From Candidatus Omnitrophota bacterium (lineage in GTDB: Bacteria > Omnitrophota > Gorgyraeia > Tantalellales > Tantalellaceae): a stretch of DNA of 64,000 nucleotides. The stretch spans positions 37,457 to 101,456 of the forward strand of contig JBDRKO010000012.1 of the NCBI GenBank assembly GCA_043813915.1, read 5' to 3'. Positions 1-52,388 of this stretch are shown one piece after another. The translations under genes were made by a program, and so were the position numbers. The notes beneath the pieces are model-generated. The model did no database searches. It was given only the letters and a program-made list of their open reading frames with translations, and was not told the origin of the DNA. Each line of letters starts with the position of its first letter. Position 1 is the first letter of the stretch.

Positions 1-157
1 AAAAAATTTTTATTTATATCTAAAAATTCTGGAATTATTCAAAGATGATAGCGCGATATTAGTAAGGATTGACAAATATTTAACCCCGGAACTTTGCGAA
101 CTGTCTCAAATAAATGATCCTAGAACACAAAATATTTTCTATGAAGAGCTGTCTCAG

Positions 158-3100
158 ATGATAAAAGAGAACCAGTCTCCTTCTCAAGTAAAGCAGCATA
201 TGGAAGAGATATTGCAAACAAAAATCACTAAAGAAGTTAACGAAGCGAGTGATAGTACACGTTTTTTACCCGCACAAAAACTGGGCAAAGTGCTGGCTTG
301 TATATTTAAACTAGGAGGGAAGATAGATAAAGCGACCTCAAAGGCTTTCAAATTATTCAGCCTGGAACTGGAACCCGAGGGTGATAGTAACACCGCACAT
401 GGGGAGATCATAAGATCATGTTTTATGAGCCTGCCGGAACTAACAATGCAAAATCCACCTGTTGATCCTCCTGTATATAAAAGCCAAAAGGGGCAGAGGA
501 TGAAGGCGCTTTCTAATATCCCGGGCGAAGCAGCCGCAGGTATCCTGCGGCTGCTTAAAGATGCAGAACCGTATAAGGTTTTAGGGCGGACAATAATATA
601 TAAAACAAATGAAGGATATACGGCTTTTAAGTTTCTTAAAAAGGAGCAAACTCTCCAGCCCAACGGAAGTTACGCAGAAAAACGGGAAGACTCCGGGAAA
701 CTTGTTTATGAAAGCGAGATATTCGACTTCCTGAACACGCTTAAACACGAAAAACGCGCATTGCAGGGAGACTATCCGACTGCGGTAAAAATAGGCGGTG
801 AAAGGATGTTTTGCATCAAAACAGAAACGGTCCCAGGTGCCCTGAGCGGGACCCCCGGCATAGATAAAACGGGCGGTTTTTGTACCTTTATGGCCTATGA
901 AACAGAGGATCCGGACTACTTTGTGTATCTTCACGAAGAAGAAAACGATAAAAAAGCAGAGAAAGCTGCTGAAAAAAATATTCACGATCTATTCTTTCTG
1001 GCAAAATACGGGCTTATACATCCGGACATAATTGAACTCTTCCATAACATAACGGCTGTTCCCAGGGATGATGAAGGGAAGTATCTGGGGATGGTCGATA
1101 TAAGCAGGCCTATTATCAACAGAAGGGGGACGGGAAGACTTCATGGATGGGAAAAAGAGGTAACTTACCCAAACATGCGTATTTCCGGTGCGGCTGATTT
1201 TGCCGAACTTGTGAATATAAACGATCTTATATCCCTGGATAACGGACATTCAAAATACCTAAGAAAAAATCTTTACAAAATGCAGGAAGAAAAAAGAGTG
1301 CAACATATACTAGCTCATTTTTTCAGCAATTACTTTTTGTCTTGGGTTTTGGTGGAGGGGAAACGCCTGAAACAGCACGGGAAAATCATAAAACAGGATT
1401 GGAAAGACGCGGACAAAGTAAAGAAACTGGGCGACAGAGCGAAAAATATTTATATAAAGGCTTATAAAACATTTATAAACTCTAACGGAGAAGATCTCGA
1501 AGCTATTGTGGACTGGGACATGTTAGCGCGACAGATGCTGTTTTATTTAGGGGGCGCTTATAAAGATTACGATATAGAGGATATTCCGGCAAACATACAT
1601 GGCATGCAGGGCCTTCGTATAAGCCACGGGGATGGATGGGGGTTCATACATGAAGATATTATCAAAGAAGCGACCGAAAAAAATGATAAAGAACGGGTGC
1701 TTGATGAATATTTCGATAATGCCGTATCATCCGCCGACAGGGAGTTCCCGGAAGGAGTATTGATCTTCAAGCCCGGGTTTGAAGAATTACTTGGAAAAGA
1801 AGAAAATAAACAGCTTGCCGGCATTCTTGGGAAGTTGTACAAAGAATACGCGAAGGGTTGGAGGCTTGACGGCAAGCATGAAGACCTGGGTCCCATAAAT
1901 GGCCCCTTTCCTATCACGGAGCTCATCAAGGCTAACTATATTTATACAATGGCAATGATCGGAAGGTATGCGTATGGCTCTCGGCTGGAGAAAAACCCAG
2001 AAAGCCAAGATCCAGGGGTCAGTGTTAGGGGTTCAGGGTTCAGGGAGATTCCCGGACGGAAAACCGAATACAATGACAGAGGACAGATAGCTAGATTGAC
2101 CGACGACCGTGGGATCGTCTGGGAAGAGTATTTTTACAAGGAAGAAGGTGTCTTTGAAGCGGTTGATCTGTATAACCCGGTTACCGGAAAAAGGATCAGA
2201 TGTGAGCCGGATAAAGCCCCTCAAAAAAGACCGGAATATGCAAAAATACTAATAAAAATAGAAGAAAAGAACGGACAGTTCCGGCAAGTTGGGGATATGA
2301 ACATTAATGCTGACAGTAAGGCGCTTTTCTGCGTGGCAAATATCCAGCTGCCCGAAACGGGAGAAGAAAAAACAAGAGGAAAAGGGATAGGGAAAACGGT
2401 GCTCAGATGGATAGATATGCAGGCTTACAGGCAGAGTAAACCGCTAGAAATAGAACAAGCGGTTAACCCGGTCATGGCTCATATAGCAGGTACGCTGTAT
2501 GAGGTTTCGAGACTCAAAATAACGGTGGGTGATAAGTCTTATTCTGATATCCATGAAGAGGAAGAATTGAGAAATTTGCTTTTTGAGAGAACATATTTAC
2601 TTTCACTGCCGGGAGATTTCACTTATTTGACCGTTGGAAAGGGGTCGGATGAAGTCAGTATCGAGCGCGTATATAATTCCCGAACAGGGCAACTTGTAAA
2701 AGATAATAAACTTCCGCCCGGATACGACTATAAAATTGACAAAGAAAAAAAACGATTAATTATCACGGATCCGAAGGGTAACCCTGCGCGATTAGAATAT
2801 TTTCCGGGGATCACTTTCGTAGGCTTGCCTGATGTCGGTAAAATAGTCAAAACGCAGGAGATGGAAAATGACCAAAGGGTCAAAGGACAGGGTTCAGGGG
2901 ACAGGGTTAAGGGTCCAGGGTTCAGGGAGATCCCCGGGCGGAAAATCGAATACAATGACAGAGGACAGATAGCTAGATTGACCGACGACCGGGGGATCGT
3001 TTGGGAAGAGTATCAGTACAGGGATGACGGGACGATCGATTATGTATCTTTACATAATCCTGTAACCGGAAGAACGATAAAATGTGAATATAAAGGATAT

Positions 3101-6100
3101 CCGGGAGGCATACCCGGTAACCAGAAGTGGGTTATAAGCCGGGAAGTTGAGGAAAACGGGCCTGTTCCGATAGGCAAACTTATAATTCAGGAAGGGCAAG
3201 ATGCGGCAACAGGGCAGAGATATATACGGCAAAGTAATCTTAGTATCCGCGATAAAGACGATCGCAATAAGGGGATAAGTAAAACAGTAAAAATATGGTT
3301 CGCGTTAAGGGCATATCGAGAAAGCAAAGTATTAAAATTTGCTGCGATATGGAGTCCCTTGTCCGCCAAGATAGATATCGGGGTTTGTGATATCTCATCG
3401 CTCAGGATCAGCAAAGAAAAAAGCGCACGATCGGGAGGTAAGCTGATAGTTTTTTCTGACGGAGAGGACCTAAAAAGACAACTATTGGAACAAGAATTTT
3501 ATTTTCAGGGGCCCACGGGTTTGGTCCGTATAAGCGTGGAACCCGGGACCCAAGAAATAGTTACTACTACAAACTGGCCCAAGGAATACACCCGAGAAAT
3601 AAAAGATGGGGAGTTAGTTGTTAACGACGAAAACGGAGAAAGAATATCAATAAGATATGAAGACAGTTTTTACTTCGAAGGTTTACCTGATGTTAAGAAA
3701 ATAGTAGGCGTGCAGGATGTGGAAGAGAGTCAAGGGAGCAGCCCCTCGGCTTCGCTCGGGACAAGAGAGTCCCCGGCGGCGGCGGGGTCGCCTTTGGCGG
3801 AAAAGAGCCAAAGTTCGGGCAGTAATGGGCCAGGAAAGACGGAGATAGAGAGGATCAACATCGAAGAGCTGCGCGAACTGATAACAGGTATACATGAATA
3901 TATTATCAGACCGGGCAGTCCATACGCGCTTGAGTCAGGATTATGTCTTAGCACGAACGTAGTGTTATATAGGACTATAAAGAACATACGCACTATAAAA
4001 AATGAGATCATTAAAAATGGTGGAACGCGGGGGAGGGTAGCCGCAGACATGCCGGAACCGAAAGCAGAAATATGCAGGAAACAAATAGGAGCGGAGGAAC
4101 ATTGGTTTTTGCTTGTGGACAGCGACTTCGTAGTGGATATTTTTCCCAATTATACTGGACGGCGGACAGGGTTGCATAAGACCGTGATAGTGATGACGAA
4201 AAAAGAAGCCGAAGAGTTAAACGGCTGGTATAAAAACGCGGAACAAAGCAAGATGAATAATCATACCTTAGAAAACATCCGTAGAATGGAGAGTGAAATG
4301 GCTAAGACAGGGGCGGATATAGCTTTAAGAGAATGGCTTGATACGCAGATAGACCGCAGAATGCGCGTAGAAAAAATAAAAGATGAAAAAGATACGGCGC
4401 AAATGATGAAGAAAACCAATACTGTCGAGACTGATCCGGAAAAGGTTTTTATCGGGAACTTAAAGGGATTAATGACAGGTTTTTACGGCACTTTTGTCGG
4501 AGAGAGGAGCATATATCGCGCATTTGAAAGAGGGGACAAAGGGATCGACTTGTCGCTTTTGAGGTTGTTTGCCAAAATAAGCGGAAAAGTGCCGGAACTT
4601 AACGTTGAACTCTGCTATTCAGATAACGCGGAAACGAAATATTGGTATTTGCTTGTCAACAGCAGGATCATCGTCAGCATGTATCCGCCCGAAGAGTTCA
4701 ATAGCGAATGGATAGTAATGACAGAAGAAGATGCGGCATTGGAGAGCAAGCTGTATGACAGAAAAAACAGAAACAAGATAACAGGAACGACAGTATTTGA
4801 GCGAGCGCGGAAAAGATGGGATAACCCGGCTATGGAGGAATATGAACCGATGGTTGATGAGCTGATAGAAAAATGGCTTAAATATAGAGTAAACAATATC
4901 GGCAGTCCGGCGAAAGAAAAAGAAAGTATCCGGAACGGACACAGTAACCCGCGTGATACGTCTGAAAACTTCAGAAATATCGGGAAAGTTTACGATGACA
5001 ATATGGACATAGCAGTTACGCAAACGTCGGAAAAAGAAGCCCAGCTGGAGGTCACGGCGTATAATGCCAGGAATCAAAAAGAGGAAACTTTTCATTTGAA
5101 CGCTTCCATTCACGGGCCGCCTACAAAAGAGCAAAAACAGCGGATAACAGATACCGCAAAAAAAGAGCACAAGAGCCTTATAGCCACCATCCTTAGCCTA
5201 TTCCCGGACGATATCCCCTTATACATACTGACTGACCCCTTAAAGGAAGACCTCTTCGGTTTTGCATCGATCAAGAATAAATTTATAGCGCTTCATAGGA
5301 CCATTAAAGATGATCCTGTAGCGCTGTTCCACGAGATAGGTGAATATCTGATCCGTGTCCCGTCGCTCGTGTCTCGTGTTTCCCGTTTACAATTAGAACT
5401 GGATGAAAAAAATAGATTAACTGTAACGATAAACGGAGAGAGACAGGAACCCGTAGTTTTGTCGGAGGCAACGCTTAAGTTTATTGAAGATGAGAAGATG
5501 GAAGGCGAGTGGGGGCCGAACTGGCAGACAAGCCAGCATTATCTCCTGCGTATTTTACAAAGAGAAGTTTTCGGCAAGGCGGACGAAACCCTTACCGAGA
5601 AGATCATTGACGGGCAAATGACCGCAAGAATGGAAAAAGAAGGGTCTAGAGCTGAGCCGTGGGGGCCGATCAAGGTAAACGGCTTAAGCATTTATGCTAA
5701 AGAGGTCATTAAGCCCTCAGAGATCAGAAAAACCTTAGATATATGGTTTGACGGGAAGGAAGAGAGATATTTTCTCAGAGAACAGTGGGAGAAAGCGATC
5801 AACGCAGCAATAAAAAGAGCACGTCCCGCGTTTCTTGTGAAAATTGAATCACAAGAAGGGGAGTTGATGGGGATCTCATATTGCCATAAAGGACTGTTCC
5901 CGTTCGAAGAAGGAGAAGCTGATATTTATATAGGCGATTTCAGTGAGATACCCGGTAAATACAGGGGAAAAGGTCTTGGCGAAGTCATTATGGCCAAAGG
6001 GATGGAAAGGATGGTCAGCGCGCATAGGGACGGTATAGACAGGGAAGAGATCTACGTAGGCCATCCCGCGGAACATGACGAAGAAGAATACGCGGACAAA

Positions 6101-9100
6101 GGAAAACGTGCGGAAAGATTTTTGTATCAACTCGGGTTCAACGATATCTGTTTTTCATGGTTTGAAACTCTTTCGCAGGAAGACAAGGCTAAAAGCCGTT
6201 TCATGGGGATCTCGGCATATAAGGCACAGGGGCTGGTTAACAGGGTAAAGGGAATGATCGGAGGAACAAGAAAGACAATATCTAAGCCTAAGCAGATGAA
6301 ACTATTCCCGCAAGCCCCCGAACAGCTCAAACTGTTCCCGGAAGTCAGTTCTACCTCAGGTGAAAATATCGCGGAACTAGAAAAAGCAAGAAAGAAAGCG
6401 GTAAGAATAAAGAGAAAATTAAAGAAAAAAAAGATCACGGACAAACAACTGAGCTTGTTCCAGAGGGAGAAGGGCCCAGAGAATACCGGTTTGGGCGAAG
6501 ACATGCTAAAAAAGACGCTAGAAGAACAAGGGGTAGATATAAACCGTGTATCGGAATTTCTTGCAGACTTTTCAAAAAACATAAAAGAGGAAAAGAAAAA
6601 TACATTTTTAATACAACTCGCCGATTGTTTTAGGGAAAGCAAGAAAACGAGGCTTGGCACAAAATTAGAAATAATGGAACCATATTTGTCCGATGTTATG
6701 GATAGCCTTCAAATTAAAATGGACATGGCAAACTTCCATTTTACAATTAATCATGGGACAACCAGTGTTGGATATATGGCGGAGAGTGTAAACATTAAGA
6801 ATGAGTATCATGATTTCACCATATACCTAATTGAAGAAGAAATTGACAAAACATATACCGTGAACCTTCTGGTTGATATAGATAAATGTCTCGCCACGCA
6901 ACCACGTCTTGCGGATGCGATAATGAAATTATGTGATGATAGAGGTACTACGATAGGCATTGCGAAACAAGCTGCTAATAATAAAAAAGGGACAGAAGGC
7001 AGGATTAACGGCATAGCGACACGATCAAAGGACGGCGAAAGGCAACTTATCGTATTGCCGCTTTATGATGTGAACGGAGAAAAAATAGGATACGAAAAGC
7101 CGGCAGGATATGCTTACGACGCGGATGTTCTGATCGACGGACGAAGAGTTACCCGTTTAGAAGCGATTTTGAGCCATGAGATAGCTTATTTATTTTTAAG
7201 AAGAACGCAAAAAAGTCAAAAATGGATATTGAAGGTAGACCAAAAAAGAATAAAAAAATTCACAGAGAAACACTCCGAAATAGAATGGGACATTAAAAGA
7301 TACGAAGAAAATATGGAAGAGGGGTTATTTGAACTGGTCTTCGAGATATATGGGATGAGGGCAGAAAGGATCAATGCGGAGTTTGATTTTCGGAGTTTAT
7401 CTTTGGAAGAAAAAGAAACTGTCCTCAAAAAAACATTCGTATCAGCTGAAAGTAGTTTTAACGTGCACGAATTTTTCGCGGATACTTTGGCGGCCTATTG
7501 GCTGGTGCCGGAGTTTGTTAAAGAAAAGGACCGGATCATGTTCGACCTTTTTGAGGCGATAGGCGTATGGAAAGATATTGAGAAGGGAGCGCGAACAGAC
7601 GACGAAAATAATGTAACGGATCCCCCCGGCCGGATAGGGAAATATTACACGGAAATAATCGCCGATGATGAACCGGGAGAAAACAGGTGGATAGTAAAAG
7701 CGATGCGTCACGGCGCATCTAAAGAGGCGGCTATCGATCTCGGCAGAACGTTCAGGGCCCCGCCTGTTGACGATGAGGTTAAGACGGAAATAAGAGATGC
7801 TGTTGACTCCAGAGATGCATCCAGGAAAACCGCGTATAAAGAACTTGTCAAAGAGATCTTAGAACAATTTCCCCAAAAAACCGTTCTTTACATATATAAA
7901 AACCTTTATCGGGACCTTTTCGGTTTTAACGATGTATCAAAAAAAATGATGGCTTTATATCGGGAGCTTTATGATGATAAGAAAACCCGGCCGGTCAGTC
8001 TGTTCCACGAGATATGCGAGTATCTTGGCACATTGAAGGTGATAGGGATAAGGGCCCGGGGAGACAAATTATTTGTGCGGATCAAAGGCAGAGAAACAGA
8101 AGTAGATGTTAGACGGGCGCGAAAAAGCCTGAAAGAAGACGGAGAAGACTGGATCAATTGGACGGAACAGGAGATCAATAAACCGGAAAACCGGCATTAT
8201 CTATTGAGGATACTGCAGAGGGAAATTTTCGGAGAAAAAGATGAGCTATTAACGAAAAAAATAAAAGACCTTGGGGAGCGCGGGTATAGGCGTTCCGCTG
8301 AAACGGATACGAAGAAAGCGGGAATGGCTACGCTAGACCAAATGATCCGGGAACTAGCCAGGGACATGGATATAACGGGCATGGAAAATGAGATAAAAGT
8401 ATTTTATGAAAAGTATATCAGGCTGGCAATGCGTGTACCGGTTGGAGGGCAAATATTGCTGAGCAGTATTAGAGCCGAACATATAGCGGATATGTTCTAT
8501 TTAAAAAAAGCATATCAATTCGATCTGTTCGAACTTCTGGAAGGGAAGCGCGAGACAAAATGGGTAAAAAGGGACGGGGCCGTCACGGATGAATATGTGT
8601 TCTATAACCGAAATGACGGGACATATGTTAATAAAGTAAGCGAGGCCGGGAAAAAGACATTTTTAGGAAAAGCCACCGATGGACGTTTTGGCCTAGAGGA
8701 CCGTGCCCATGACGGCGGAAGGAACATAGGCAATTTTAGGATAAAGACATTCTCTTTAAATAAATGGTTCCAAAAGACCGAGGGAGAGATGTCCTTAAAT
8801 ATAGACCGCGGTAAAGATACGAACGATCCGTATGCGTTATGTCGTTATTATGAAACTATTGGAGCACATGTTGATTGGCGGCTACTTAGCGGGAGCATGC
8901 TAATAACGGGTGGTTTGGATGCGGGCATATCAACAAAGAAAGAAACCGAAAGGATAGAAGGCCTCGAGAAATACGTGAGAAACGTCTGGAGCCAGAGAAA
9001 ACGCGACAGGTATTTCAGATTGACAAAAGATATAGAAACGGCAAGATTAGCCGAAGCTAATCAGGCGTTTACGGACGCGCATATGGATGTGGATATAGAT

Positions 9101-12100
9101 TCTTTGCGGAAGATCCAGCCGGAAGAGGTCGCGGAATTCATACAACATTATGATGGTGCAACACGAGAATTGGAAAAAGACATGGCGTTGAATGATGAGG
9201 TTAAAGCGAGACTGGGATCATTCTGCAGGAAATATTTAGAGATAAAAGAAGAATTCATCCGATGCGGATATGCTCCGGAAGATGAATACATGGTCAAATG
9301 TTTTAACGGGGAGATAATAGCGGATATGTTCTATTTAGCGGAAAAAGACGGGTTCAATGTTTTGGATCTTCGCAGCAAAAACAGGACTAAATGGATGAAA
9401 GAAGAAAATGGCATAACGATCCATTATGAATTCGAAAAGGAAAAAGACAGATCCGTATCAATGTATGAAGTTGATCAGAATAAGCCAAGGCGTAAAATAG
9501 CTTGTTTCAATGAGTTTTCTTATTATTTGGACGATCTAGATGCGGATGGGGGGAAAAATCTTGGAAATTTTCTTACAAAAACCGTTTATTTTCTATTGTG
9601 GGCAAACAAAAAGCAGAAAAAAACAGAGTTTGTGATCAGCTTTGAAATAAGCGGCGCACTAAAAGAGTACTATATGACTACCGGAGCGCGGATAGGAAGC
9701 AGGACTGATTTCGGCGATGAGATAGCACGCGTGGATCTGGTCGGAGGATTAAGAGCCGGGATATTAACTCCGCAGCAGGCAAAAAGGATTAAAGATCCAA
9801 ATGGCCGTCATAGACTTAATCCCTTTATATGGCGCGTATGGAGCCAGAGAAAGCTGGACAGGTATTTCAGATTGACTAAGGCCATAGAGACAGAGAAACT
9901 CGTCGAAGCTAACCGGGCCTTTACGGAAGCGCGCGCGGCGACGGATATCGAGGATCTGCAGAAGATCCAGCCGGAAGAAGTCGCGGAATTTATAAAAACT
10001 TATTTAACGGAAAAAGTTAAAGAGGAAACGGACACAATTGTCTTCGCGCATGGTACGACAAAAGATGCTATTAGCAATCTTGATGCGGGTTTTTTGAAAA
10101 AAAAGCTGTCTTTTCAGGGAGGAAGGGTAGAAGATATTTTGCGCTTGATCGGGACACATATAGAGGGAAAACTGTATGGAGATGAAAAAGAAATGCTTAT
10201 TTACTGCTTAAGTGAACTGTTAGTCAATACTCATTTCAGGGGAAAAGAGACTATGGGTACCGAGGCGTATCTTTACGTGCCGGAGAAGCGGAGAGACCCT
10301 GGGGTATTAAAATTTGTTGTTTCACAGAAAGGCATTAGAGAGGAAAGATATTGGGGTATACTTAAAAAGACCGCTGCAAAATTTTCCCAAAAAGGCAATA
10401 AAGGGTATGAATATTTTATGGATGTCATACAACGTAAGAAAGATAGAACTAGGGTGGGGGATGGAAGCGCGCTTTTCTGGGTTGGCAGACTTATGGAAAG
10501 AACAAATGTTTACCTTGAATATACACGGAAAGGGGAGGAGATAATAACCAATATCTGGATCGACCTTGGCCCGCTTTTGGAGGGCGACGCTCATGACGAA
10601 CAAGGGAAAGAAACGGTTGTTTTTGCGCATGGGATGACAGAGGGCGATATTAATGTTTTTAAAAAGATCGAAGAAGAAAAAGAGCCTGTCCGCATGCCCG
10701 GGGCCGGACATGTTATTAACTTTGTACGTGCCGAGACCGGGAAAAACATTTGGCGGTCGAAATCGTATGCTTTTGGGGAGTGTCTGGGAGAATTGTTGAA
10801 CAATGCGTGCATGCGTGGAAATGGCGTGGTATCCAGCCACGCGTATGTGTATGAAGCCGGAGAACATAAAGAATATATATTGAGATTCAATATTTCACAA
10901 AAGGGTCTCAATGAAGAAGTCTATTGGCATCTACTTAAGAGAACTGCCAAAAATTTTGCGCAACAAGATAAGAAAGGACCCGCGTATCTTCAGGATACAG
11001 AAAAGCGTGAGCGGGAGGAGATAACAATAGGCGGCGGATCTGGTTTTAAGTTTGTCGGGAGACTTATGGAAGAAACAGATGTCTATCTTGAATATACGCG
11101 AAATGGCGAGAATATCGAGACTGATATATGGGTCAGACTCGAACCATTTTTAGGAGAGACGTTCGATGCCGGACAAAAAGAAACGACAATACGCGACTTG
11201 GCCGGAGAAATGATCATTAAAAAAATAACAAAGGCAAAGATCCAACAGGTCGACAGAAAAAGCCAGGAGCTAAGAACCCGACTTAAAAATTCGTGGGCGG
11301 TAATGCCGGAAGAGTCGCGAAAGACGCCGATAGATATAGTGATAGACCTGTCATTAGTGTCAAAAGAGGACCTTCAGGAAAACATCGAAACCTGGGCGTA
11401 TCTTTTCTTGCTACTGTTCAAACAGGAGAATGTGAATTTTGTTTTCGAAAAAGGCTCTGAAATTCTTAAAGGCGTACGTCTTTCCGAAGAATTGGCTAAC
11501 GATGTCGCTCAGGCGCCTGAGGTAGAAGATGTTTTGAGAGATCTGAAAGCGGCGATAAAAAAGAATGCTAAATTTTCTGATTTTCAATTGGAAGATGAAA
11601 AATTTGATAAGATCCTCGATAAACGTGTTAAGACTGTCCGTAGTGAACCGATTCTCCTCGAAAACCGGGAAAAACCGGAAAAACCGGTTGAGATAACGGT
11701 CACATCTCAAGAATGTTTAATATGGGCAAGTAAAAACGATAAACTTCTCGAGGAGAACCAATATCCCATTGCCATGGAGGGGTTTACGCTTAATGAAGCC
11801 GGAGGCGTTCCGCTTAGGAACTTTGAAGCCGCGGTGATGATAGGTTTTGCCAAGGCCTTGCTTGTTCTTGCCAAAAGAAGAGATATACGGAAAAAACCCG
11901 GAGAAGAGAGAGAACTTCCGCTGCTCAAGAAAAGACTTCTCAACCAGCTTAATGGGTTGTATAGCCTTTGTATAGACGATATTATCAGATTTACAGAGGA
12001 TACACTTGATTCTATGGTACATACTTCACCCATCGTAAGGCTGAATTTAGCAATTGATCTTGCGTTGTCGAAGATAACAAGAATGCCGGTGGGAGGCCTT

Positions 12101-12145
12101 ATTGAGCTTCACAGGGCAATACAATCTGCCCTTCAGGCGGCATAA
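158..12145 (+). CDS. Giant repetitive protein of unknown function, at least 3995 aa. The reading frame stays open, with no stop, from nt 2 to 157, so the gene may begin upstream of the window.
   Basis: It is an uninterrupted 12-kb ORF with coding-like composition. Internal protein repeats include RGSGFREIPGRK..ARLTDDRGIVWEEY (twice), SLFHEI.EYL..HYLLRILQRE (twice) and two roughly 150-aa tandem modules near the C-terminus. The N-terminus has no signal peptide. Confidence 0.75.
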   Translation: MIKENQSPSQVKQHMEEILQTKITKEVNEASDSTRFLPAQKLGKVLACIFKLGGKIDKATSKAFKLFSLELEPEGDSNTAHGEIIRSCFMSLPELTMQNPPVDPPVYKSQKGQRMKALSNIPGEAAAGILRLLKDAEPYKVLGRTIIYKTNEGYTAFKFLKKEQTLQPNGSYAEKREDSGKLVYESEIFDFLNTLKHEKRALQGDYPTAVKIGGERMFCIKTETVPGALSGTPGIDKTGGFCTFMAYETEDPDYFVYLHEEENDKKAEKAAEKNIHDLFFLAKYGLIHPDIIELFHNITAVPRDDEGKYLGMVDISRPIINRRGTGRLHGWEKEVTYPNMRISGAADFAELVNINDLISLDNGHSKYLRKNLYKMQEEKRVQHILAHFFSNYFLSWVLVEGKRLKQHGKIIKQDWKDADKVKKLGDRAKNIYIKAYKTFINSNGEDLEAIVDWDMLARQMLFYLGGAYKDYDIEDIPANIHGMQGLRISHGDGWGFIHEDIIKEATEKNDKERVLDEYFDNAVSSADREFPEGVLIFKPGFEELLGKEENKQLAGILGKLYKEYAKGWRLDGKHEDLGPINGPFPITELIKANYIYTMAMIGRYAYGSRLEKNPESQDPGVSVRGSGFREIPGRKTEYNDRGQIARLTDDRGIVWEEYFYKEEGVFEAVDLYNPVTGKRIRCEPDKAPQKRPEYAKILIKIEEKNGQFRQVGDMNINADSKALFCVANIQLPETGEEKTRGKGIGKTVLRWIDMQAYRQSKPLEIEQAVNPVMAHIAGTLYEVSRLKITVGDKSYSDIHEEEELRNLLFERTYLLSLPGDFTYLTVGKGSDEVSIERVYNSRTGQLVKDNKLPPGYDYKIDKEKKRLIITDPKGNPARLEYFPGITFVGLPDVGKIVKTQEMENDQRVKGQGSGDRVKGPGFREIPGRKIEYNDRGQIARLTDDRGIVWEEYQYRDDGTIDYVSLHNPVTGRTIKCEYKGYPGGIPGNQKWVISREVEENGPVPIGKLIIQEGQDAATGQRYIRQSNLSIRDKDDRNKGISKTVKIWFALRAYRESKVLKFAAIWSPLSAKIDIGVCDISSLRISKEKSARSGGKLIVFSDGEDLKRQLLEQEFYFQGPTGLVRISVEPGTQEIVTTTNWPKEYTREIKDGELVVNDENGERISIRYEDSFYFEGLPDVKKIVGVQDVEESQGSSPSASLGTRESPAAAGSPLAEKSQSSGSNGPGKTEIERINIEELRELITGIHEYIIRPGSPYALESGLCLSTNVVLYRTIKNIRTIKNEIIKNGGTRGRVAADMPEPKAEICRKQIGAEEHWFLLVDSDFVVDIFPNYTGRRTGLHKTVIVMTKKEAEELNGWYKNAEQSKMNNHTLENIRRMESEMAKTGADIALREWLDTQIDRRMRVEKIKDEKDTAQMMKKTNTVETDPEKVFIGNLKGLMTGFYGTFVGERSIYRAFERGDKGIDLSLLRLFAKISGKVPELNVELCYSDNAETKYWYLLVNSRIIVSMYPPEEFNSEWIVMTEEDAALESKLYDRKNRNKITGTTVFERARKRWDNPAMEEYEPMVDELIEKWLKYRVNNIGSPAKEKESIRNGHSNPRDTSENFRNIGKVYDDNMDIAVTQTSEKEAQLEVTAYNARNQKEETFHLNASIHGPPTKEQKQRITDTAKKEHKSLIATILSLFPDDIPLYILTDPLKEDLFGFASIKNKFIALHRTIKDDPVALFHEIGEYLIRVPSLVSRVSRLQLELDEKNRLTVTINGERQEPVVLSEATLKFIEDEKMEGEWGPNWQTSQHYLLRILQREVFGKADETLTEKIIDGQMTARMEKEGSRAEPWGPIKVNGLSIYAKEVIKPSEIRKTLDIWFDGKEERYFLREQWEKAINAAIKRARPAFLVKIESQEGELMGISYCHKGLFPFEEGEADIYIGDFSEIPGKYRGKGLGEVIMAKGMERMVSAHRDGIDREEIYVGHPAEHDEEEYADKGKRAERFLYQLGFNDICFSWFETLSQEDKAKSRFMGISAYKAQGLVNRVKGMIGGTRKTISKPKQMKLFPQAPEQLKLFPEVSSTSGENIAELEKARKKAVRIKRKLKKKKITDKQLSLFQREKGPENTGLGEDMLKKTLEEQGVDINRVSEFLADFSKNIKEEKKNTFLIQLADCFRESKKTRLGTKLEIMEPYLSDVMDSLQIKMDMANFHFTINHGTTSVGYMAESVNIKNEYHDFTIYLIEEEIDKTYTVNLLVDIDKCLATQPRLADAIMKLCDDRGTTIGIAKQAANNKKGTEGRINGIATRSKDGERQLIVLPLYDVNGEKIGYEKPAGYAYDADVLIDGRRVTRLEAILSHEIAYLFLRRTQKSQKWILKVDQKRIKKFTEKHSEIEWDIKRYEENMEEGLFELVFEIYGMRAERINAEFDFRSLSLEEKETVLKKTFVSAESSFNVHEFFADTLAAYWLVPEFVKEKDRIMFDLFEAIGVWKDIEKGARTDDENNVTDPPGRIGKYYTEIIADDEPGENRWIVKAMRHGASKEAAIDLGRTFRAPPVDDEVKTEIRDAVDSRDASRKTAYKELVKEILEQFPQKTVLYIYKNLYRDLFGFNDVSKKMMALYRELYDDKKTRPVSLFHEICEYLGTLKVIGIRARGDKLFVRIKGRETEVDVRRARKSLKEDGEDWINWTEQEINKPENRHYLLRILQREIFGEKDELLTKKIKDLGERGYRRSAETDTKKAGMATLDQMIRELARDMDITGMENEIKVFYEKYIRLAMRVPVGGQILLSSIRAEHIADMFYLKKAYQFDLFELLEGKRETKWVKRDGAVTDEYVFYNRNDGTYVNKVSEAGKKTFLGKATDGRFGLEDRAHDGGRNIGNFRIKTFSLNKWFQKTEGEMSLNIDRGKDTNDPYALCRYYETIGAHVDWRLLSGSMLITGGLDAGISTKKETERIEGLEKYVRNVWSQRKRDRYFRLTKDIETARLAEANQAFTDAHMDVDIDSLRKIQPEEVAEFIQHYDGATRELEKDMALNDEVKARLGSFCRKYLEIKEEFIRCGYAPEDEYMVKCFNGEIIADMFYLAEKDGFNVLDLRSKNRTKWMKEENGITIHYEFEKEKDRSVSMYEVDQNKPRRKIACFNEFSYYLDDLDADGGKNLGNFLTKTVYFLLWANKKQKKTEFVISFEISGALKEYYMTTGARIGSRTDFGDEIARVDLVGGLRAGILTPQQAKRIKDPNGRHRLNPFIWRVWSQRKLDRYFRLTKAIETEKLVEANRAFTEARAATDIEDLQKIQPEEVAEFIKTYLTEKVKEETDTIVFAHGTTKDAISNLDAGFLKKKLSFQGGRVEDILRLIGTHIEGKLYGDEKEMLIYCLSELLVNTHFRGKETMGTEAYLYVPEKRRDPGVLKFVVSQKGIREERYWGILKKTAAKFSQKGNKGYEYFMDVIQRKKDRTRVGDGSALFWVGRLMERTNVYLEYTRKGEEIITNIWIDLGPLLEGDAHDEQGKETVVFAHGMTEGDINVFKKIEEEKEPVRMPGAGHVINFVRAETGKNIWRSKSYAFGECLGELLNNACMRGNGVVSSHAYVYEAGEHKEYILRFNISQKGLNEEVYWHLLKRTAKNFAQQDKKGPAYLQDTEKREREEITIGGGSGFKFVGRLMEETDVYLEYTRNGENIETDIWVRLEPFLGETFDAGQKETTIRDLAGEMIIKKITKAKIQQVDRKSQELRTRLKNSWAVMPEESRKTPIDIVIDLSLVSKEDLQENIETWAYLFLLLFKQENVNFVFEKGSEILKGVRLSEELANDVAQAPEVEDVLRDLKAAIKKNAKFSDFQLEDEKFDKILDKRVKTVRSEPILLENREKPEKPVEITVTSQECLIWASKNDKLLEENQYPIAMEGFTLNEAGGVPLRNFEAAVMIGFAKALLVLAKRRDIRKKPGEERELPLLKKRLLNQLNGLYSLCIDDIIRFTEDTLDSMVHTSPIVRLNLAIDLALSKITRMPVGGLIELHRAIQSALQAA

Positions 12146-12501
12146 AAGAGACAGAAACAGGAGCCGGGGGTTAAACCCCGGCTGCAATTGTGGATAGTGT
12201 GCAAAGCGGATATCTCATCAATGTGTCATTCCGAGCGGAGTGATGAGCGATAGCGAGAGAACGGAGTCGAGGGATCTGATAAGAGAAAATATCTCTCAGC
12301 TCGTTCGTCGTTCTACTTCTTGCTCGCTTGAGATGGCGGTGTGGTTTATGGTTTAGAGCCTACGGTCGTATATATATTGACTTTCTACTATTAATTGTTA
12401 AAATAATGTTTAATATGGGCGTCCTTATGAACAAAGCAATGGTCCATGGCCGTTTGCTGTAAGGTGTTTTTGTTTTTATCGAAAAATGGGGGGAAAGATA
12501 T

Positions 12502-15374: not shown

Positions 15375-16043
15375 ATGCCCCGAAAACCAGAACAAAAAAA
15401 GATCATTAAAAAGAATATCCTGATAACGGCCGGACCGACAATAGAGCCCATAGACCCGGTGAGGTATCTTACCAACCGTTCTTCGGGTACAATGGGGTAT
15501 AAGATAGCCGAAAAAATGATCGCGGCAGGCCACGAAGTATGTATTATATCAGGCCCTGTCAGCGTTTCTCCGCCTTCCGGAGCCGAGATCATATCCGTGG
15601 AGACGGCGGATGAGATGAACAAAGAAGTGATCGGGCGGATAGACGCGTGCGATTGTATTATCATGGCCGCGGCGGTTTGTGATTTCAGGCCCGCGAGAAA
15701 GGAAAACCGGAAGATAAAAGAACTGGGAAAATATACGCTCGAGATGGTGCGTAATCCCGACATATTAAAAGGCGTGAGAGACCGGAATATCATCAAGATC
15801 GGGTTCGCGCTCGAGACGGATGACCCGATAAAGAACGGCAAAAAAAAACTTGCGGAAAAAGAACTGGATGCCATCATCGTGAATTCGAAGACGGACAAGA
15901 ACGATCCTTTCGGCAAAGCGGAGGTAAAAAGGGAATACATTCTGATCAAACCGGGTGACGACGTGAGAACGATAAAGGACGTGACCAAGGACGAGATGGC
16001 CGAAATGATCAAAAAAGAGGTCGAGAAGATGCTATGGGTCTGA
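15375..16043 (+). CDS. coaB: Phosphopantothenate-cysteine ligase (CoaB half).
   Basis: It carries the motifs ITAGPTIEPIDPVRYLTNRSSGTMG. It starts 1 nt after the coaC stop, in another frame. Confidence 0.8.
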   Translation: MPRKPEQKKIIKKNILITAGPTIEPIDPVRYLTNRSSGTMGYKIAEKMIAAGHEVCIISGPVSVSPPSGAEIISVETADEMNKEVIGRIDACDCIIMAAAVCDFRPARKENRKIKELGKYTLEMVRNPDILKGVRDRNIIKIGFALETDDPIKNGKKKLAEKELDAIIVNSKTDKNDPFGKAEVKREYILIKPGDDVRTIKDVTKDEMAEMIKKEVEKMLWV

Positions 16044-16489
16044 AGAATTGGGCTAGCAAAGGGTTCACCATAAGCGAGCTGCTGGTAGTTATGATCATAG
16101 TTTTCGCAGCGGGATTGGTCCTGCTGCCTGCCGTTAAATACAGCAGCAGCAGGATGGATAAGACCATATGCACGAATAATCTCAGAGAGATGGGTCTTGC
16201 GCTTTACATATACGCCGAGGAACACGGAGGAGAATTTCCCCCGTCGATCAAAGCTTTGTATGAACAGGGGTATCTATCGGATGAACGGATAACGGATTGT
16301 CCCGCAAACAAGGATAAGGGAACGCCTGAACAGCCAGATTACATATATACGGCGGGATTATCCGCCAAAAGCTCCTCTAACGGCGTTTTGCTCAAAGATA
16401 GAGCTAAGAACCATTCCTCGGAGTGGAAAAATGTCATGAGAGTCGACGGGACCATATCAGCAGGGGAAGAGAACAATAAAGCGGATTGA
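16034..16489 (+). CDS. Prepilin-type N-terminal cleavage/methylation domain protein (type IV pilin or pseudopilin-like).
   Basis: The leader MGLKNWASKG is followed by FTISELLVVMIIV, which is the G|FTxxE motif followed by a hydrophobic helix. Confidence 0.7.
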   Translation: MGLKNWASKGFTISELLVVMIIVFAAGLVLLPAVKYSSSRMDKTICTNNLREMGLALYIYAEEHGGEFPPSIKALYEQGYLSDERITDCPANKDKGTPEQPDYIYTAGLSAKSSSNGVLLKDRAKNHSSEWKNVMRVDGTISAGEENNKAD

Positions 16490-16666: not shown

Positions 16667-17502
16667 TTCTTCTTCGCCCTTCGATAATGGGGGAAAACTG
16701 GTAGGGCTTCGAAGAAACAAGTTCTTGGTATGAGGTAAGCGAAGAAGAATGCCTCTGCGAAGCCTCACCGGAGGGGCTCTAGAGGAAGGCGAAGCAGGGC
16801 AAACCTTCGCCCTTCGATAATGGGGCGTGATGGTACGAAGTTTCTTCGAAGCTGTACCGTTGTTTACTTTTTGAACAGCGAAGAAGAAGGGCTTCGAAGA
16901 AACAAGTTCTTGGTATGAGGTAAGCGAAGAAGAATGCCTCTGCGAAGCCTCACCGGAGGGGCTCTAGAGGAAGGCGAAGCAGGGCAGATACGGTATAGAT
17001 AATAGTAGTATTAGGTTACATGTATATTGATATTGTAACATAGCGGGCGGTTAGCTCAGATGGTTAGAGCGCCACGTTGACATCGTGGAGGTCACCGGTT
17101 CGATCCCAGTACCGCCCACCATTCTTCTTCGCCCTTCGATAATGGTGCGCATTGGTACGAAGTTTCTTCGAAGCTGTACCGTTGTTTACTTTTTGAACAG
17201 CGAAGAAGAAGGGCTTCGAAGAAACAAGTTCTTGGTATGAGGTAAGCGAAGAAGAATGCCTCTGCGAAGCCTCACCGGAGGTTCTTTTGAGAAAGGCGAA
17301 GCAGGGCAAACCTTCGCCCTTCGATAATGGTGCGCATTGGTACGAAGTTTCTTCGAAGCTGTACCGTTGTTTACTTTTTGAACAGCGAAGAAGAAGGGCT
17401 ACGAAGAAACAAGTTCTTGGTATGAGGTAAGCGAAGAAGAATGCCTCTGCGAAGCCTCACCGGAGGTTCTTTTGAGAAAGGCGAAGCAGGGCAGACCTTC
17501 GC
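16667..17502. repeat. Tandem array of about 4 copies of a roughly 190-bp unit; the first copy is shorter. The unit reads ttcttcttcgcccttcgataatgg...ggtacgaagtttcttcgaagctgtacc...gcctctgcgaagcctcaccggagg...aggcgaagcagggca. The array is interrupted by tRNA-Val.
   Basis: The copies can be aligned directly, at more than 90% identity. Each tRNA 3' CCA is followed immediately by the unit start TTCTTCTTCGCCC. Confidence 0.85.
17045..17121 (+). tRNA. tRNA-Val (anticodon GAC).
   Basis: The acceptor is GGGCGGT/ACCGCCC, the D-arm is GCTC..GAGC, the anticodon stem-loop is CCACG-TTGACAT-CGTGG, and the CCA is encoded. The T-stem has one mismatch. Confidence 0.85.
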
Positions 17503-17709
17503 CTGTGCTGGATGCCTATATTTCATGTAGCTACGGCGGACTAGGCGACATTAAGAAAAGGCGAAGGTTGTCCTCCGTAGTCGAGTGATATCTAAATAGA
17601 TTGACGAAGGAGGACCATTAGAGCATTGGAGCATTAAAAGGGTTATATAGTGGGTTCCATTGCGGTCCATTGTTCGAATGCTCGAATGTTCAAGATATAC
17701 AGGAAAAAC

Positions 17710-26277: not shown

Positions 26278-26334
26278 GCGCGGCCAAAAAAAATCTGTTA
26301 CAAAACATTTTCAAAGTGATATAATTAAGTTACT

Positions 26335-26510
26335 GCTAAGTGCGTGAAGCGGGAACGATGAATTGGACCAACACGATAAAATAGGGAATCTAACTTTGAC
26401 GTTTTCTTTATGGGAACGGCAAGAGGGTACCCACCTGGGAAACCAGGTCTCAATTCTCTTTCTGCGCACGGCTTGTCGGGGTAGGGCCGGAGAAGTCCGG
26501 CCCTATTTTT
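26335..26510 (+). ncRNA. Candidate roughly 175-nt structured small RNA or cis-regulatory leader, family unassigned. It runs from a promoter-like TTACAA-N17-TATAAT at about 26300-26326 to an intrinsic terminator.
   Basis: No coding ORF fits. It contains a GAAA-tetraloop hairpin CCTGG-GAAA-CCAGG. The terminator GGGCCGGA-gaag-TCCGGCCC plus T7 lies at 26475..26510. Confidence 0.3.
26475..26510 (+). terminator. Rho-independent terminator: an 8-bp GC stem, a 4-nt loop and T7.
   Basis: The sequence is gggccggagaagtccggccctattttttt. Confidence 0.7.
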
Positions 26511-43512: not shown

Positions 43513-44835
43513 ATGAAAAGATTTATTTGGTCACAGCTACTTCATTGGAAAGAGAAAAAAGACCGGAAACCTCTTATTTTAAGAGGTGTTCGTCAAGTTG
43601 GGAAAACATACATACTCCGTTCTTTTGCTAACACTTACTTTTCAAATGTTCATTATGTAAATTTCGAAAAAGAGGAACAATTGATCTCAATATTTGACAC
43701 TGATCTTTCGCCTGTACGGATTCTAAAAGAATTAAGTTTTCATTTGGGTCGATCTATTGATAATAAAAATGACATTATGATCTTTGATGAGATCCAGAAC
43801 GCACCCAAAGCTCTTACCAGCCTGAAATACTTTTATGAAGAAATGCCGGAAATGGCCATATGCTCGGCAGGTTCATTGCTGGGACTTCACTTGGGAGCTG
43901 AGGCATTCCCGGTAGGTAAAGTAGATTTCCTTGAGTTATATCCCTTTTCTTTTGCCGAATTTTTAAGAGGTGTCGGTGACCAAAAATCTTATACTTTTCT
44001 CAGGGATTTTAAAAAGGGACAAATTATCTCGGACCATATACATAAACATTTATGGGAACAACTAAAATTGTATTTCGTTGTAGGCGGCCTTCCTGAAGTC
44101 ATTAATACCTACTCTTCACATAAAGATAATTTATTCTCCGCGCTAGAACTAGTACGAAAAAAACAGAAAGAGCTTATTGTAGCTTATACCGCGGATATGG
44201 CAAAACATTCCGGAAAGCAGAACGCCATGCACTTAGAGCGCTTATTTAGGAACATACCTGCCCAACTTGCCAAAGAACAGGACTTTTCAGTTTCCAGGTT
44301 CAAGTTTAAGGGAATAATTCCCGGTATTAACAGATATTCAAAGCTGGCAGGTTCAATTGATTGGCTGATTAACGCGGGATTAATTATCAAATCCAACATA
44401 GTAAACCACTGTGAACTTCCCTTCTCTGCTTACACAAAAGAAAATTTCTTTAAACTTTATCTTTTTGATCCGGGTATTCTTGGTGCCTTGAGCGATCTTC
44501 CCTCTAAAGCTATCTTGGACTACGATTATGGCTCATATAAAGGATACTTCGCTGAAAATTATGCCGCTTGTGAATTCAAATGCTTTGAAGGCAAAGACCT
44601 TTATTCTTGGCAGGAAAACACCGCGGAGGTGGAATTTTTAAGAGAAATAGATGGTTCCATTTTTCCCATTGAAATCAAGTCGGGGAACATAACCCAGGCA
44701 AAAAGCCTTAAAGTGTTTGCGGACAAATATGATCCGCCATACCGCACTGTAATGAGTGGGAAAAAACCACTTTTCGATGATATAAATAAAATTCACAAGT
44801 ACCCTTTATACCTAGCTTCGCGTTTTCCTGTTTGA
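43513..44835 (+). CDS. AAA+ ATPase with a C-terminal DUF4143-like domain.
   Basis: It has the Walker A motif GVRQVGKT and a Walker B motif IMIFDEIQ. Confidence 0.7.
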   Translation: MKRFIWSQLLHWKEKKDRKPLILRGVRQVGKTYILRSFANTYFSNVHYVNFEKEEQLISIFDTDLSPVRILKELSFHLGRSIDNKNDIMIFDEIQNAPKALTSLKYFYEEMPEMAICSAGSLLGLHLGAEAFPVGKVDFLELYPFSFAEFLRGVGDQKSYTFLRDFKKGQIISDHIHKHLWEQLKLYFVVGGLPEVINTYSSHKDNLFSALELVRKKQKELIVAYTADMAKHSGKQNAMHLERLFRNIPAQLAKEQDFSVSRFKFKGIIPGINRYSKLAGSIDWLINAGLIIKSNIVNHCELPFSAYTKENFFKLYLFDPGILGALSDLPSKAILDYDYGSYKGYFAENYAACEFKCFEGKDLYSWQENTAEVEFLREIDGSIFPIEIKSGNITQAKSLKVFADKYDPPYRTVMSGKKPLFDDINKIHKYPLYLASRFPV

Positions 44836-44906
44836 GATCATAAGATCCAAAAGGGCATATGTTTTAGCAAAAAGAAAAAACCCCCACGATTAGTGAGGGT
44901 TCATTC

Positions 44907-44923
44907 AGATTGGCTGGGATGCC
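44907..44923. repeat. Direct repeat of the tRNA-Gln 3' end (17 nt, TGGCTGGGATGCCTGG), a candidate att site.
   Basis: It is identical to 45103..45119 and 52314..52330. Confidence 0.7.
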
Positions 44924-45102
44924 TGGCCGATTCGGACTATGATGCTTCTGTTCGTCGCATCATTTACGCCCTTATCGGCATTTCCTTGCGCCTTTGGCGC
45001 TCGGTCAGACTCGGCGTTACATTAATTTCATATTATTTTCGCCATCGTCCACTTACACAGACCAATAAACAAAAAACCCCTCTAACGAGGGGCATTTTGT
45101 TT

Positions 45103-45121
45103 ATGGCTGGGATGCCTGGAC
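45103..45121. repeat. Direct repeat of the tRNA-Gln 3' end (19 nt), a candidate attR of the integrative element.
   Basis: TGGCTGGGATGCCTGGACT matches the tRNA-Gln 3' end at 52314..52332. Confidence 0.75.
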
Positions 45122-45216
45122 TATCAGCTAGGCTTTCCCAAGTCCTTTAGTCACTTGTGATTGTAAACTTTCTTTAAATTTTTGGACAGTTTTTGGTCAG
45201 TTTCTAGTGAAATAGA

Positions 45217-47994: not shown

Positions 47995-48173
47995 AGTTTT
48001 GACATTATACTACTTTTATCTTGTTAGTGCAATAGAAAGTATGTAGCTTTTTCCCTCTTAATTACAATTATCTCTATAGAAGGGAGCTGAGAGTCTTTGA
48101 ATCCCGGCGGAAAGCCCTAAACCCTTGTTAGCTAAAAGACTTAAGGCTTACGCCTGTACATCAATTGTACCGT

Positions 48174-49256: not shown

Positions 49257-49495
49257 ATTAAGCGCCTCCTGTTATTATCAACCTTAAAATCTTTCATCAC
49301 ATCTTCTGGGTCAAATCTTAATGCATTACCTATCTTGATGTATGAAATAAGATTTTGCGAGGTCATCCTGTAAAGTTTTGATAACTTGATCTGGTACATC
49401 TCACAGATTTCCTTTGCTGTAAGATACTGTTTACTTAAGTACTTATTACTCATTTTCTTAATATCCTTTTTTGTATCTATGTCTATTAGGCACAC
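49253..49495 (-). CDS. Helix-turn-helix excisionase/AlpA-like DNA-binding protein.
   Basis: It is 80 aa with the HTH YLTAKEICEMYQIKLSKLYRM. Its stop overlaps the integrase start. Confidence 0.6.
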   Translation of the reverse strand: MCLIDIDTKKDIKKMSNKYLSKQYLTAKEICEMYQIKLSKLYRMTSQNLISYIKIGNALRFDPEDVMKDFKVDNNRRRLI

Positions 49496-52313: not shown

Positions 52314-52388
52314 TGGCTGGGATGCCTGGACTCGAACCAGAAACGGATGATCCAGAGTCATCTGTGTTACCAATTACACCACATCCCA
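52314..52388 (-). tRNA. tRNA-Gln (anticodon CTG).
   Basis: The reverse complement folds as TGGGATG/CATCCCA acceptor, D-arm GTGT..ACAC, anticodon stem GATGA-CTCTGGA-TCATC, and T-arm TCTGG-TTCGAGT-CCAGG, with discriminator G and CCA. Confidence 0.85.

Follow-up and report, generated by a model that had tools for sequence, protein, structure and literature searches.

A SidJ-like kinase-fold domain in the conserved core of a giant modular protein from an Omnitrophota bacterium

Introduction

In the literature considered here, protein glutamylation by a kinase fold has been demonstrated only for SidJ and SdjA of Legionella pneumophila (PDB 6K4K, 6OQQ, 7MIR), which need host calmodulin and target SidE ligases (PMC6858067; bioRxiv 10.1101/2021.04.13.439722). 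Mutagenesis and cryo-electron microscopy place R352, K367, E381, N534, D542 and D545 of SidJ in the kinase site, while a second, migrated pocket uses H492, R500, Y506 and N733 to hold the acyl-adenylate and R522 to position the donor glutamate (PMC6858067; bioRxiv 10.1101/2021.04.13.439722). The passages on homologs in these two reports name Elusimicrobia, Desulfovibrio, Waddlia, archaea and crocodilepox viruses as sources of SidJ homologs outside Legionella. Such homologs lack the IQ motif and must have other substrates and activators (bioRxiv 10.1101/2021.04.13.439722), and the SidJ authors left the substrates and activation mechanisms of the environmental homologs open (PMC6858067; bioRxiv 10.1101/2021.04.13.439722). 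Here we analyze a stretch of 64,000 nucleotides (hereafter the window) from Candidatus Omnitrophota bacterium (assembly GCA_043813915.1, contig JBDRKO010000012.1, positions 37,457 to 101,456 of the forward strand), which opens inside a giant gene whose product carries a distant SidJ-like domain.

Omnitrophota are known for many very long proteins (bioRxiv 10.1101/2023.11.21.568195; bioRxiv 10.64898/2026.06.07.730766), and Velamenicoccus archaeovorus is the cultured Omnitrophota episymbiont (bioRxiv 10.64898/2026.06.07.730766). The giants of this phylum described so far (the 'Archaeovorins' and dockerin-type proteins of West-Roberts et al. 2023, and those of Nielsen & Lui 2026) resemble the window protein in being multi-domain and mostly invisible to Pfam, and 'Module 1' of the Omnitrophota long proteins (GNAT, HATPase_c, methyltransferase) matches both the folds predicted below and the methyltransferases of the relatives of the window protein (bioRxiv 10.64898/2026.06.07.730766). 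However, they span at least 10-147 thousand amino acids (aa), while the window protein is probably of about 5 thousand, and they contain arrays of transmembrane (TM) helices and SecA_DEAD, C39, S8 and dockerin domains, none of which was found by Pfam or hydropathy in the visible window protein. Their genes are preceded by a locus resembling type II secretion or type IV pilus systems and followed by PilZ genes. Here the downstream gene is ndk, the upstream side falls outside the window, and in the closest giant relative (P0001) the flanks of the gene hold parAB and insertion sequence (IS) elements. A SidJ-like domain is mentioned neither in West-Roberts et al. 2023 nor in Nielsen & Lui 2026, and our literature search found no paper naming both SidJ and Omnitrophota.

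Results and Discussion

The SidJ-type active site

The open frame of the giant gene occupies positions 2..12145 of the window (+ strand) and holds 4,047 sense codons followed by a stop codon at 12143-12145. Residue numbers start at nt 2, where the window has its first full codon, and subtraction of 52 gives the numbering from the ATG at nt 158. When the whole protein was compared by phmmer with all PDB sequences, the sole match was Legionella SidJ (E 8e-14), with residues 304-414 aligned to SidJ 447-557 and residues 619-649 to SidJ 719-749. A profile built from 11 family members matched SidJ at E 2.4e-42 (149 bits) over 336-694 and 719-750, which covers both kinase lobes. NCBIfam returned NF033874, 'SidJ-related pseudokinase' (E 1.9e-15, 56.7 bits), and NF033873, 'SidJ family T4SS effector polyglutamylation protein' (E 2.4e-14, 52.7 bits), against curated cut-offs of 300 and 400 bits, respectively. 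These three kinds of search define a SidJ-like kinase-fold domain at aa ~50-655 (149..1966, +). The original prediction had described a protein with no recognisable domain architecture, and had named clear homology to a known adhesin or toxin family as something that would speak against it; there is clear homology between the N-terminal ~600 aa and SidJ, a kinase-fold glutamylase from a known effector family, and folds can be predicted for three of the modules further along, so that this description does not hold.

The residues of both SidJ sites have equivalents in the window protein. In the kinase site R352 corresponds to R196, K367 to K210, E381 to E237, N534 to N391, D542 to D399 and, with a conservative D-to-E change, D545 to E402, while in the migrated pocket H492 corresponds to H348, R500 to R355, Y506 to Y361, R522 to R379 and N733 to N633. 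Counted across ~150 family domains, the kinase site is conserved to at least 95% (R352-equivalent 140/141, K367 139/141, E381 136/143, N534 148/150, D542 149/150) and the migrated pocket to 75-99% (H492-equivalent 147/149, R522 133/150, N733 125/130, R500 97/129). Judged from these residues, the near-invariance is the pattern of an active enzyme and not of a decayed pseudokinase.

The likeness to SidJ and SdjA thus extends over both lobes of the kinase-like domain, the ATP/metal site and the migrated pocket, but the differences are considerable. SidJ and SdjA depend on calmodulin, whereas a regular-expression search found no calmodulin-binding IQ motif in the 4,047 aa of the window protein; identity is ~25-30% over the best stretch, and the domain forms part of a protein exceeding 4,000 aa whose source is an environmental, non-Legionella bacterium. 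The alignment is confined to SidJ 336-750, with no homology to the SidE-binding N-terminal domain or to the C-terminal domain of SidJ, and there is no SidE-family neighbour in the visible neighbourhood, the upstream side of which falls outside the window. In the broad sense the domain is a member of the SidJ superfamily. Because it scores far below the curated family cut-offs and has neither an IQ motif nor a SidE linkage, the domain is, on sequence comparison, a distant branch and not an equivalog, and should not be filed as a SidJ orthologue. The missing IQ motif and SidE-binding domain are in accordance with the published remark on non-Legionella SidJ homologs, and the window protein fits the IQ-less homologs with conserved catalytic residues that are treated in the homolog passages of Sulpizio et al. 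2019 and Osinski et al. 2021.

If the domain works as SidJ does, ATP/Mg would bind in the kinase cleft (R196, K210, E237, N391, D399), where a carboxylate of a target protein, in all likelihood that of a Glu side chain, would be adenylated. The acyl-adenylate would be held in the migrated pocket (H348, R355, Y361, N633), where R379 would position a free glutamate whose attack on the acyl-adenylate would give an isopeptide bond, the net outcome being protein glutamylation without calmodulin. Acyltransferase-like and ATP-binding-like cassettes elsewhere in the protein could add or regulate further modifications. The explanation that we favour, and that we hold to be slightly on the probable side, is that the frame represents the 3' 12 kb of an intact chromosomal Omnitrophota gene for an exported, calmodulin-independent, ATP-dependent protein-modifying (glutamylating) modular multi-enzyme giant protein.

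It is also conceivable that the SidJ-like domain is not a protein glutamylase but an AMPylase, a kinase, a ligase for another acceptor or donor (a small molecule, a cell-wall carboxylate) or a non-catalytic scaffold. The position of the domain on a distant branch, well under the NCBIfam cut-offs, and the name 'SidJ-related pseudokinase' of one of the NCBIfam matches are consistent with this, as are the auto-AMPylation of SidJ itself (PMC6858067) and the conservation of the R500 equivalent in only 97/129 of the family. However, the Arg for the donor Glu (R522 equivalent) and the whole migrated pocket are kept here and in ~90% of the family, and the near-invariant catalytic residues argue against a dead scaffold. 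We regard an activity other than glutamylation as rather improbable.

A family of modular proteins

When 1.84 billion representative proteins were searched exhaustively with HMMER, 312 clusters were returned at E <= 1e-3, 58 of them at E <= 1e-30; with at least 312 sequence clusters in its family, the protein is therefore not the orphan it was first taken for. Among the 152 members retrieved, 26 are at least 2,000 aa long and 15 at least 3,000 aa. Ten of the 15 loci found in one-genome-per-species data belong to Omnitrophota, and the remaining ones to Thermodesulfobacteriota/Desulfobacteria, to a few other metagenome-assembled genomes (MAGs) and, as remote matches, to Methanotrichaceae archaea. 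No conserved gene neighbourhood was found among the family loci.

One relative (L007, 1,607 aa) is both compact and complete. It consists of a signal peptide, a helical region of ~700 aa with a weak HEAT match, the SidJ-like domain (751-1311) and, immediately after it, a C-terminal domain of ~280 aa (1340-1621) ending in 'LALQVA'. The window protein ends in the corresponding conserved alpha/beta domain (aa 3753-4047; 11258..12142, +; last residues ...SALQAA), the second core domain of the family, which also closes P0001, P0011, P0022, P0120 and L008. The family core, as delineated by sequence comparison, runs from a signal peptide through a helical (HEAT-like) region to a SidJ-type kinase-fold domain and closes with a C-terminal alpha/beta domain of ~290 aa. 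Since the SidJ-like and C-terminal core domains adjoin in L007, the ~3,100 aa of cassettes that separate them in the window protein are an insertion.

The inserted cassettes comprise two copies each of five modules (A, B, C, D and E) and one probable GNAT domain. They are shared patchily: C occurs in P0001, P0013, P0022 and L015, D in P0001 and P0022, and A only in P0009, while modules B and E and the middle region between the two C copies did not occur elsewhere among the relatives compared. Iterative hidden Markov model (HMM) searches for A, B, E and the GNAT region among the 152 family proteins gave nothing beyond P0009 and P0120, and large-database searches with the middle and C-terminal thirds of the protein found only an identical fragment (P0008) and the module-A relative P0009. 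Relatives bear other cassettes as well, for example S-adenosylmethionine (SAM) methyltransferases, TPR and HD domains. Homology to the relatives is collinear along the window protein.

IQ-less environmental SidJ homologs are already in print, and what is added here is a giant modular Omnitrophota family with a SidJ-like core; the homolog passages of Sulpizio et al. 2019 and Osinski et al. 2021 describe no giant modular architecture, no concentration in Omnitrophota and no conserved C-terminal domain. In Omnitrophota, SidJ-like domains with an intact active site and without an IQ motif form the invariant core of a modular, large-to-giant and putatively exported family. This gives a first functional handle on one class of Pfam-dark large Omnitrophota proteins, and either the domain itself (aa ~50-660) or the 1,607-aa relative could serve as a compact test system for calmodulin-free activation and its targets.

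Three observations on the relatives may be added. The gene of the closest giant relative, P0001 (L021 10001-26635; 5,544 aa, with two SidJ-like domains), is situated right after the replication-origin cluster dnaN-dnaA-rnpA-yidC-jag-parAB and is followed by IS3- and IS66-family transposases. The remote SidJ-like matches in two Methanotrichaceae archaeon MAGs (L017, L018) have 26-36% identity over ~100-200 aa; they are of note in view of the species name of the cultured Omnitrophota episymbiont, Velamenicoccus archaeovorus, but could just as well result from horizontal transfer or mis-binning. A C-terminus of -AA, mostly in the form L(Q/R/E/G)AA, is present in 22/153 SidJ-like family proteins (P0001, P0003-6, P0009, P0011, P0016, P0022, P0120 and others, as well as the window protein, ...SALQAA, 12131-12142), where fewer than one would be expected by chance. 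This ending resembles a degradation signal of the ssrA/Tsp type, but it could alternatively serve in targeting or anchoring, or provide a substrate carboxylate.

Missing N-terminus and probable export

Alignments with the relatives P0001, P0002, P0010, P0013 and P0022 have codon 3 of the window as their first position, and this codon matches residue 1366 of P0001, 1459 of P0002, 1156 of P0013, 1359 of P0022, 702 of P0005 and 1524 of P0006. With homology reaching this far up, the ATG at 158 is internal and the true start should be sought upstream of the window, which bears out the earlier suspicion that the gene runs off the window edge. The alignments suggest that 640-1,520 residues, including a signal peptide, are missing upstream, and the complete protein is probably ~4,700-5,600 aa long. 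Scans of the genome collection and of metagenome contigs for the upstream DNA, at the level of protein and with an exact 73-nt DNA sequence, found no copy of the N-terminal region, and the contigs recovered by a look-up based on ndk all start inside the giant gene.

Full-length relatives open with a segment that resembles a signal peptide (basic residues, a hydrophobic core and an AxA-like end), and several of them show a conserved 'LQVxSxF' motif after it. Given these Sec-type signal peptides in full-length relatives, the window protein is probably also exported through a Sec signal peptide and would act outside its own cytoplasm, either on the envelope or inside a host or prey cell. The original prediction had stated that there is no signal peptide; this is right for the visible part but carries no information, since the N-terminus falls outside the window.

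There are also considerations that weigh against export. No secretion or delivery genes are visible near the giant gene within the window, and with no such machinery nearby a self-directed role in the cytoplasm becomes a serious rival. The same domains would then make up a giant regulatory or housekeeping hub, staying in or tethered to the cytoplasm of the producer and modifying its own proteins by glutamylation, acylation and ATP-dependent switching. All of the putative enzymes need cytoplasmic cofactors (ATP, Glu, acyl-CoA), no TM segment is present in the visible 4,047 aa (maximum 19-residue hydropathy 1.47), the gene is located among housekeeping genes, and the -AA C-termini are like ssrA-type degradation tags, which are recognised by the cytoplasmic ClpXP. 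The HATPase/GNAT/methyltransferase module of Omnitrophota long proteins has likewise been assigned to inner-membrane-anchored cytoplasmic architectures (Nielsen & Lui, bioRxiv 10.64898/2026.06.07.730766). On the other hand, the N-termini of full-length relatives look like cleavable Sec signal peptides, and the positive-inside rule would put the bulk of the protein outside the cytoplasm. A cytoplasmic hub therefore deserves to be taken seriously, even though we judge it to be on the unlikely side.

If the protein is exported, as we prefer to think, action in another cell makes most sense because the exported protein bears cofactor-dependent enzymes. MARTX-like modular toxins are built on a related concept, one exported giant polypeptide with several unrelated enzyme cassettes. 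The window protein shares this concept and, possibly, protease-like modules between the cassettes, but it has no MARTX repeat regions, cysteine protease domain or homology detectable by Pfam, and its delivery and processing are purely hypothetical. In an extended version of the export explanation the protein would be a Sec-exported multi-effector platform with a calmodulin-independent SidJ-type core and with cassettes (GNAT-like, GHKL-like, zincin-like, methyltransferase) that were exchanged between members of the family, delivered into or onto a host or prey cell whose proteins it would glutamylate and acylate. Targeting, anchoring or turnover would then be the task of the conserved C-terminal domain and of the -AA tail. 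We consider this version unlikely. Export of an effector, if true, would bear on how the ultra-small Omnitrophota manipulate their partners, and a multi-effector, if true, would take SidJ-type chemistry beyond a single intracellular pathogen of eukaryotes and into the interactions of environmental prokaryotes with one another.

Integrity of the gene and its setting

The frame is free of stop codons from nt 2 onwards, over 12,144 nt or 4,047 codons (3,995 aa from the first ATG at 158), and ORF 158..12145 (+) is the sole long open reading frame (ORF) of its region and by far the longest there. Five independently assembled contigs (ENA, NCBI, Logan) agree with the window at 99.99-100% identity over the overlaps, which indicates that the window sequence is no assembly artefact. 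A size of at least 4,000 aa and a frame already open at nt 2-157, both stated in the original prediction, are thereby reproduced. The window DNA is 99.99% identical to GCA_018817765.1, and the C-terminal 2,007 aa are 99.9-100% identical to the NCBI protein KKG84_05390 of a 'Candidatus Omnitrophica bacterium' MAG; by these sequence matches the giant protein is encoded by an Omnitrophota bacterium.

In all other assemblies of the locus the gene is broken, each of the five other contigs terminating within or next to it, and this could point to a pseudogene or an assembly chimera. However, 12,144 nt without a stop codon, assemblies that are identical over their overlaps and the collinear homology to the relatives are all difficult to reconcile with such an origin. 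At least one of the breaks, that of contig L001, is situated in an internal repeat: its start corresponds to window position 2962, in module A copy 2 and within the 86%-identical A1/A2 DNA repeat, which explains the fragmentation of the gene in public assemblies. Of all the explanations considered here, we give a pseudogene or chimera the least credence.

The neighbours of the giant gene are housekeeping genes. It is followed directly by ndk and then by yicC, gmk, rpoZ, coaBC, tRNA-Cys, tRNA-Val, thrS, infC, trkHA, pheST and 6S RNA, and farther downstream by iscS-like, rny, xseA, dxs, PFOR, gltX and glnS genes. An origin from a phage or a defence system was rejected on the basis of this setting and of PHROGs and PADLOC scans without a significant match. 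A GC-rich perfect palindrome with an 8-bp stem (12160-12183; read on the minus strand as AGCCGGGG-TTTAAC-CCCCGGCT) lies 15-20 nt past the stop codon of the giant gene, with no T-run reported on the plus strand, and may be a terminator or an RNA-stability hairpin.

The duplicated modules

Chunked self-BLAST of the protein detected five pairs of duplicated modules of 145-290 aa each: A (aa 669-958 / 963-1244; 45% identity, E 7e-38), B (aa 1280-1423 / 1477-1598; 23%, E 4e-6), C (aa 1684-1870 / 2565-2756; 37%, E 2e-23), D (aa 2779-3050 / 3051-3334; 39%, E 4e-42) and E (aa 3344-3540 / 3537-3730; 37%, E 2e-36). Several classes of internal duplication had been noted before, and rightly so, but the modules are not uniformly of ~150 aa as was then proposed. 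Three of the five pairs are still detectable in DNA, at 86%, 77% and 70% identity, and since these values differ the duplications are of different ages. The most similar DNA repeat is that of A1/A2 (2001-2148 / 2883-3030, 86% identical), and another one (8983-9151 / 9835-10003) belongs to the copies of module D.

Giant repetitive bacterial proteins usually serve as structural surface fibres or adhesins, and size, internal repeats and the signal peptides of the relatives would suit such a role here too. But every repeat is present only twice and has an enzyme-like fold of mixed alpha/beta type, repeats of the Ig, cadherin, RTX, YD or beta-helix kind are absent, and the core that is conserved is an enzyme domain whose active site is intact, so a fibre or adhesin appears very improbable, if a shade less so than a pseudogene. 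The absence of cadherin, Ig, RTX, RHS, YD and adenylation domains, already stated in the original prediction, was confirmed in Pfam and NCBIfam scans.

The whole protein has no significant match in Pfam, PHROGs or PADLOC, and per-segment Pfam searches gave only a sub-threshold GNAT match. The original prediction proposed HMM and structure-based searches; these left the remainder of the protein invisible to Pfam but not structureless, with predicted zincin-like, GNAT-like and GHKL-like folds. In the order of the sequence, the SidJ-like domain is followed by module A copy 1 (2006..2875, +), found outside this protein only in P0009 and with a sub-threshold match to DUF2963, by module A copy 2 (2888..3733, +), which carries the DNA repeat, and by a low-complexity linker rich in Ser, Gly, Pro and Ala, identified by a composition scan (aa ~1240-1281; 3719..3844, +). 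The two copies of the orphan module B (3839..4270 and 4430..4795, both +) were seen by self-BLAST. For module C copy 1 (5051..5611, +), in which HEIGE replaces HExxH, a zincin-like fold is predicted by transfer from the copy 2 model. A probable GNAT acyltransferase domain comes next (aa ~1900-2075; 5699..6226, +), for which the evidence is weak: a motif A 'RGKGLG' and a Pfam match of aa 1900-2075 to Acetyltransf_1 (PF00583) with E 0.048 and 14.4 bits, below the cut-off of 20.7. The middle region (aa ~2100-2560; 6299..7681, +) has a Lys-rich stretch and a short KLFP..KLFP repeat but no Pfam or PDB match, and its only homolog is the identical fragment P0008.

Beyond the middle region lie module C copy 2 (7694..8269, +), with a predicted zincin/minigluzincin-like fold and the motif HEICE, and module D copy 1 (8336..9151, +), with a predicted GNAT-like fold. 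These two were modelled together from an 11-row alignment (mean predicted local distance difference test score, pLDDT, 85). Foldseek found nothing at E <= 1e-3 with this model; the top-ranked matches (E 0.25) were minigluzincins (probability up to 0.85), other zinc peptidases and the M. tuberculosis ICL2-acetyl-CoA complex. The acetyl-CoA-binding C-terminal domain of ICL2 is GNAT-like. In this grey zone of similarity, the model is compatible with a zincin-like module C and a GNAT-like module D. HEIGE and HEICE fall on the predicted active-site helix of module C, but there is no HExxH anywhere in the protein, and the position of the second His varies among the copies (E, G, A); on this sequence evidence module C does not qualify as a canonical metalloprotease. 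Copy C1 lies directly before the probable GNAT domain and C2 directly before module D, the latter order being seen also in P0022 and P0001, which suggests that module C and an acyltransferase-like domain form a unit. The idea that A and D are GNAT paralogues of 1900-2075 was checked with hhalign, which gave no similarity between the modules, and it was dropped for A and kept for D as a fold-level suggestion.

Module D copy 2 (9152..10003, +) is supported by self-BLAST and the DNA repeat. The two copies of module E follow (10031..10621 and 10610..11191, both +), with an N-box-like 'ELLNNA' and a G2-like 'GGGSG' motif common to E1 and E2. A second model, of E2 with the C-terminal domain, had a mean pLDDT of 62 (55-70 in E2, 70-87 in the C-terminal domain). 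By its predicted fold, again in the grey zone, E2 appears to be GHKL (Bergerat) ATP-binding-like, and E1 is taken as GHKL-like from it, while the C-terminal domain gave only generic alpha/beta sandwich matches. Profile searches of PDB sequences with modules B, C, D and E, the C-terminal domain, the GNAT domain and the middle region gave no credible match; matches to RecA concatemers and ribosomal proteins were judged to be noise. Taken at face value, the predicted folds would provide the protein with extra acyl-transfer and ATP-binding or phosphotransfer activities and with a protease-like module of doubtful competence.

Elsewhere in the window

An intergenic repeat cluster surrounds tRNA-Cys and tRNA-Val at 16700-17503. 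It contains a 185-nt unit in 2.0 tandem copies (98% match) at 17127-17503 and partial copies at 16703-16775 and 16888-16986, and two of the contigs (L002 and L003) end in it. Just before the cluster, a small ORF (16034-16489, +) encodes a type IV pilin-like N-terminus (GFTISELLVVMIIVF) and has no Pfam match at 1e-5; such N-termini are common in bacteria of the Planctomycetota-Verrucomicrobiota-Chlamydiota (PVC) group. The 6S RNA (26327-26486, +; Rfam RF00013), immediately 3' of pheT, was recognised at 49 bits, barely over the gathering score.

A low-GC island at ~44000-52400 (0.34-0.39, compared with ~0.47 elsewhere) is reversed in strand and skew. Within it lie a tyrosine integrase (48174-49256, -) and ORFs without a Pfam match of 925 aa (45217-47994, -) and 495 aa (50559-52046, -). 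The island is bounded by tRNA-Gln (52314-52388, -) and probably represents an integrated mobile element. The window has a further large Pfam-less ORF, of 961 aa, at 54072-56957 (+), directly after the gene of a TPR protein (53302-54072).

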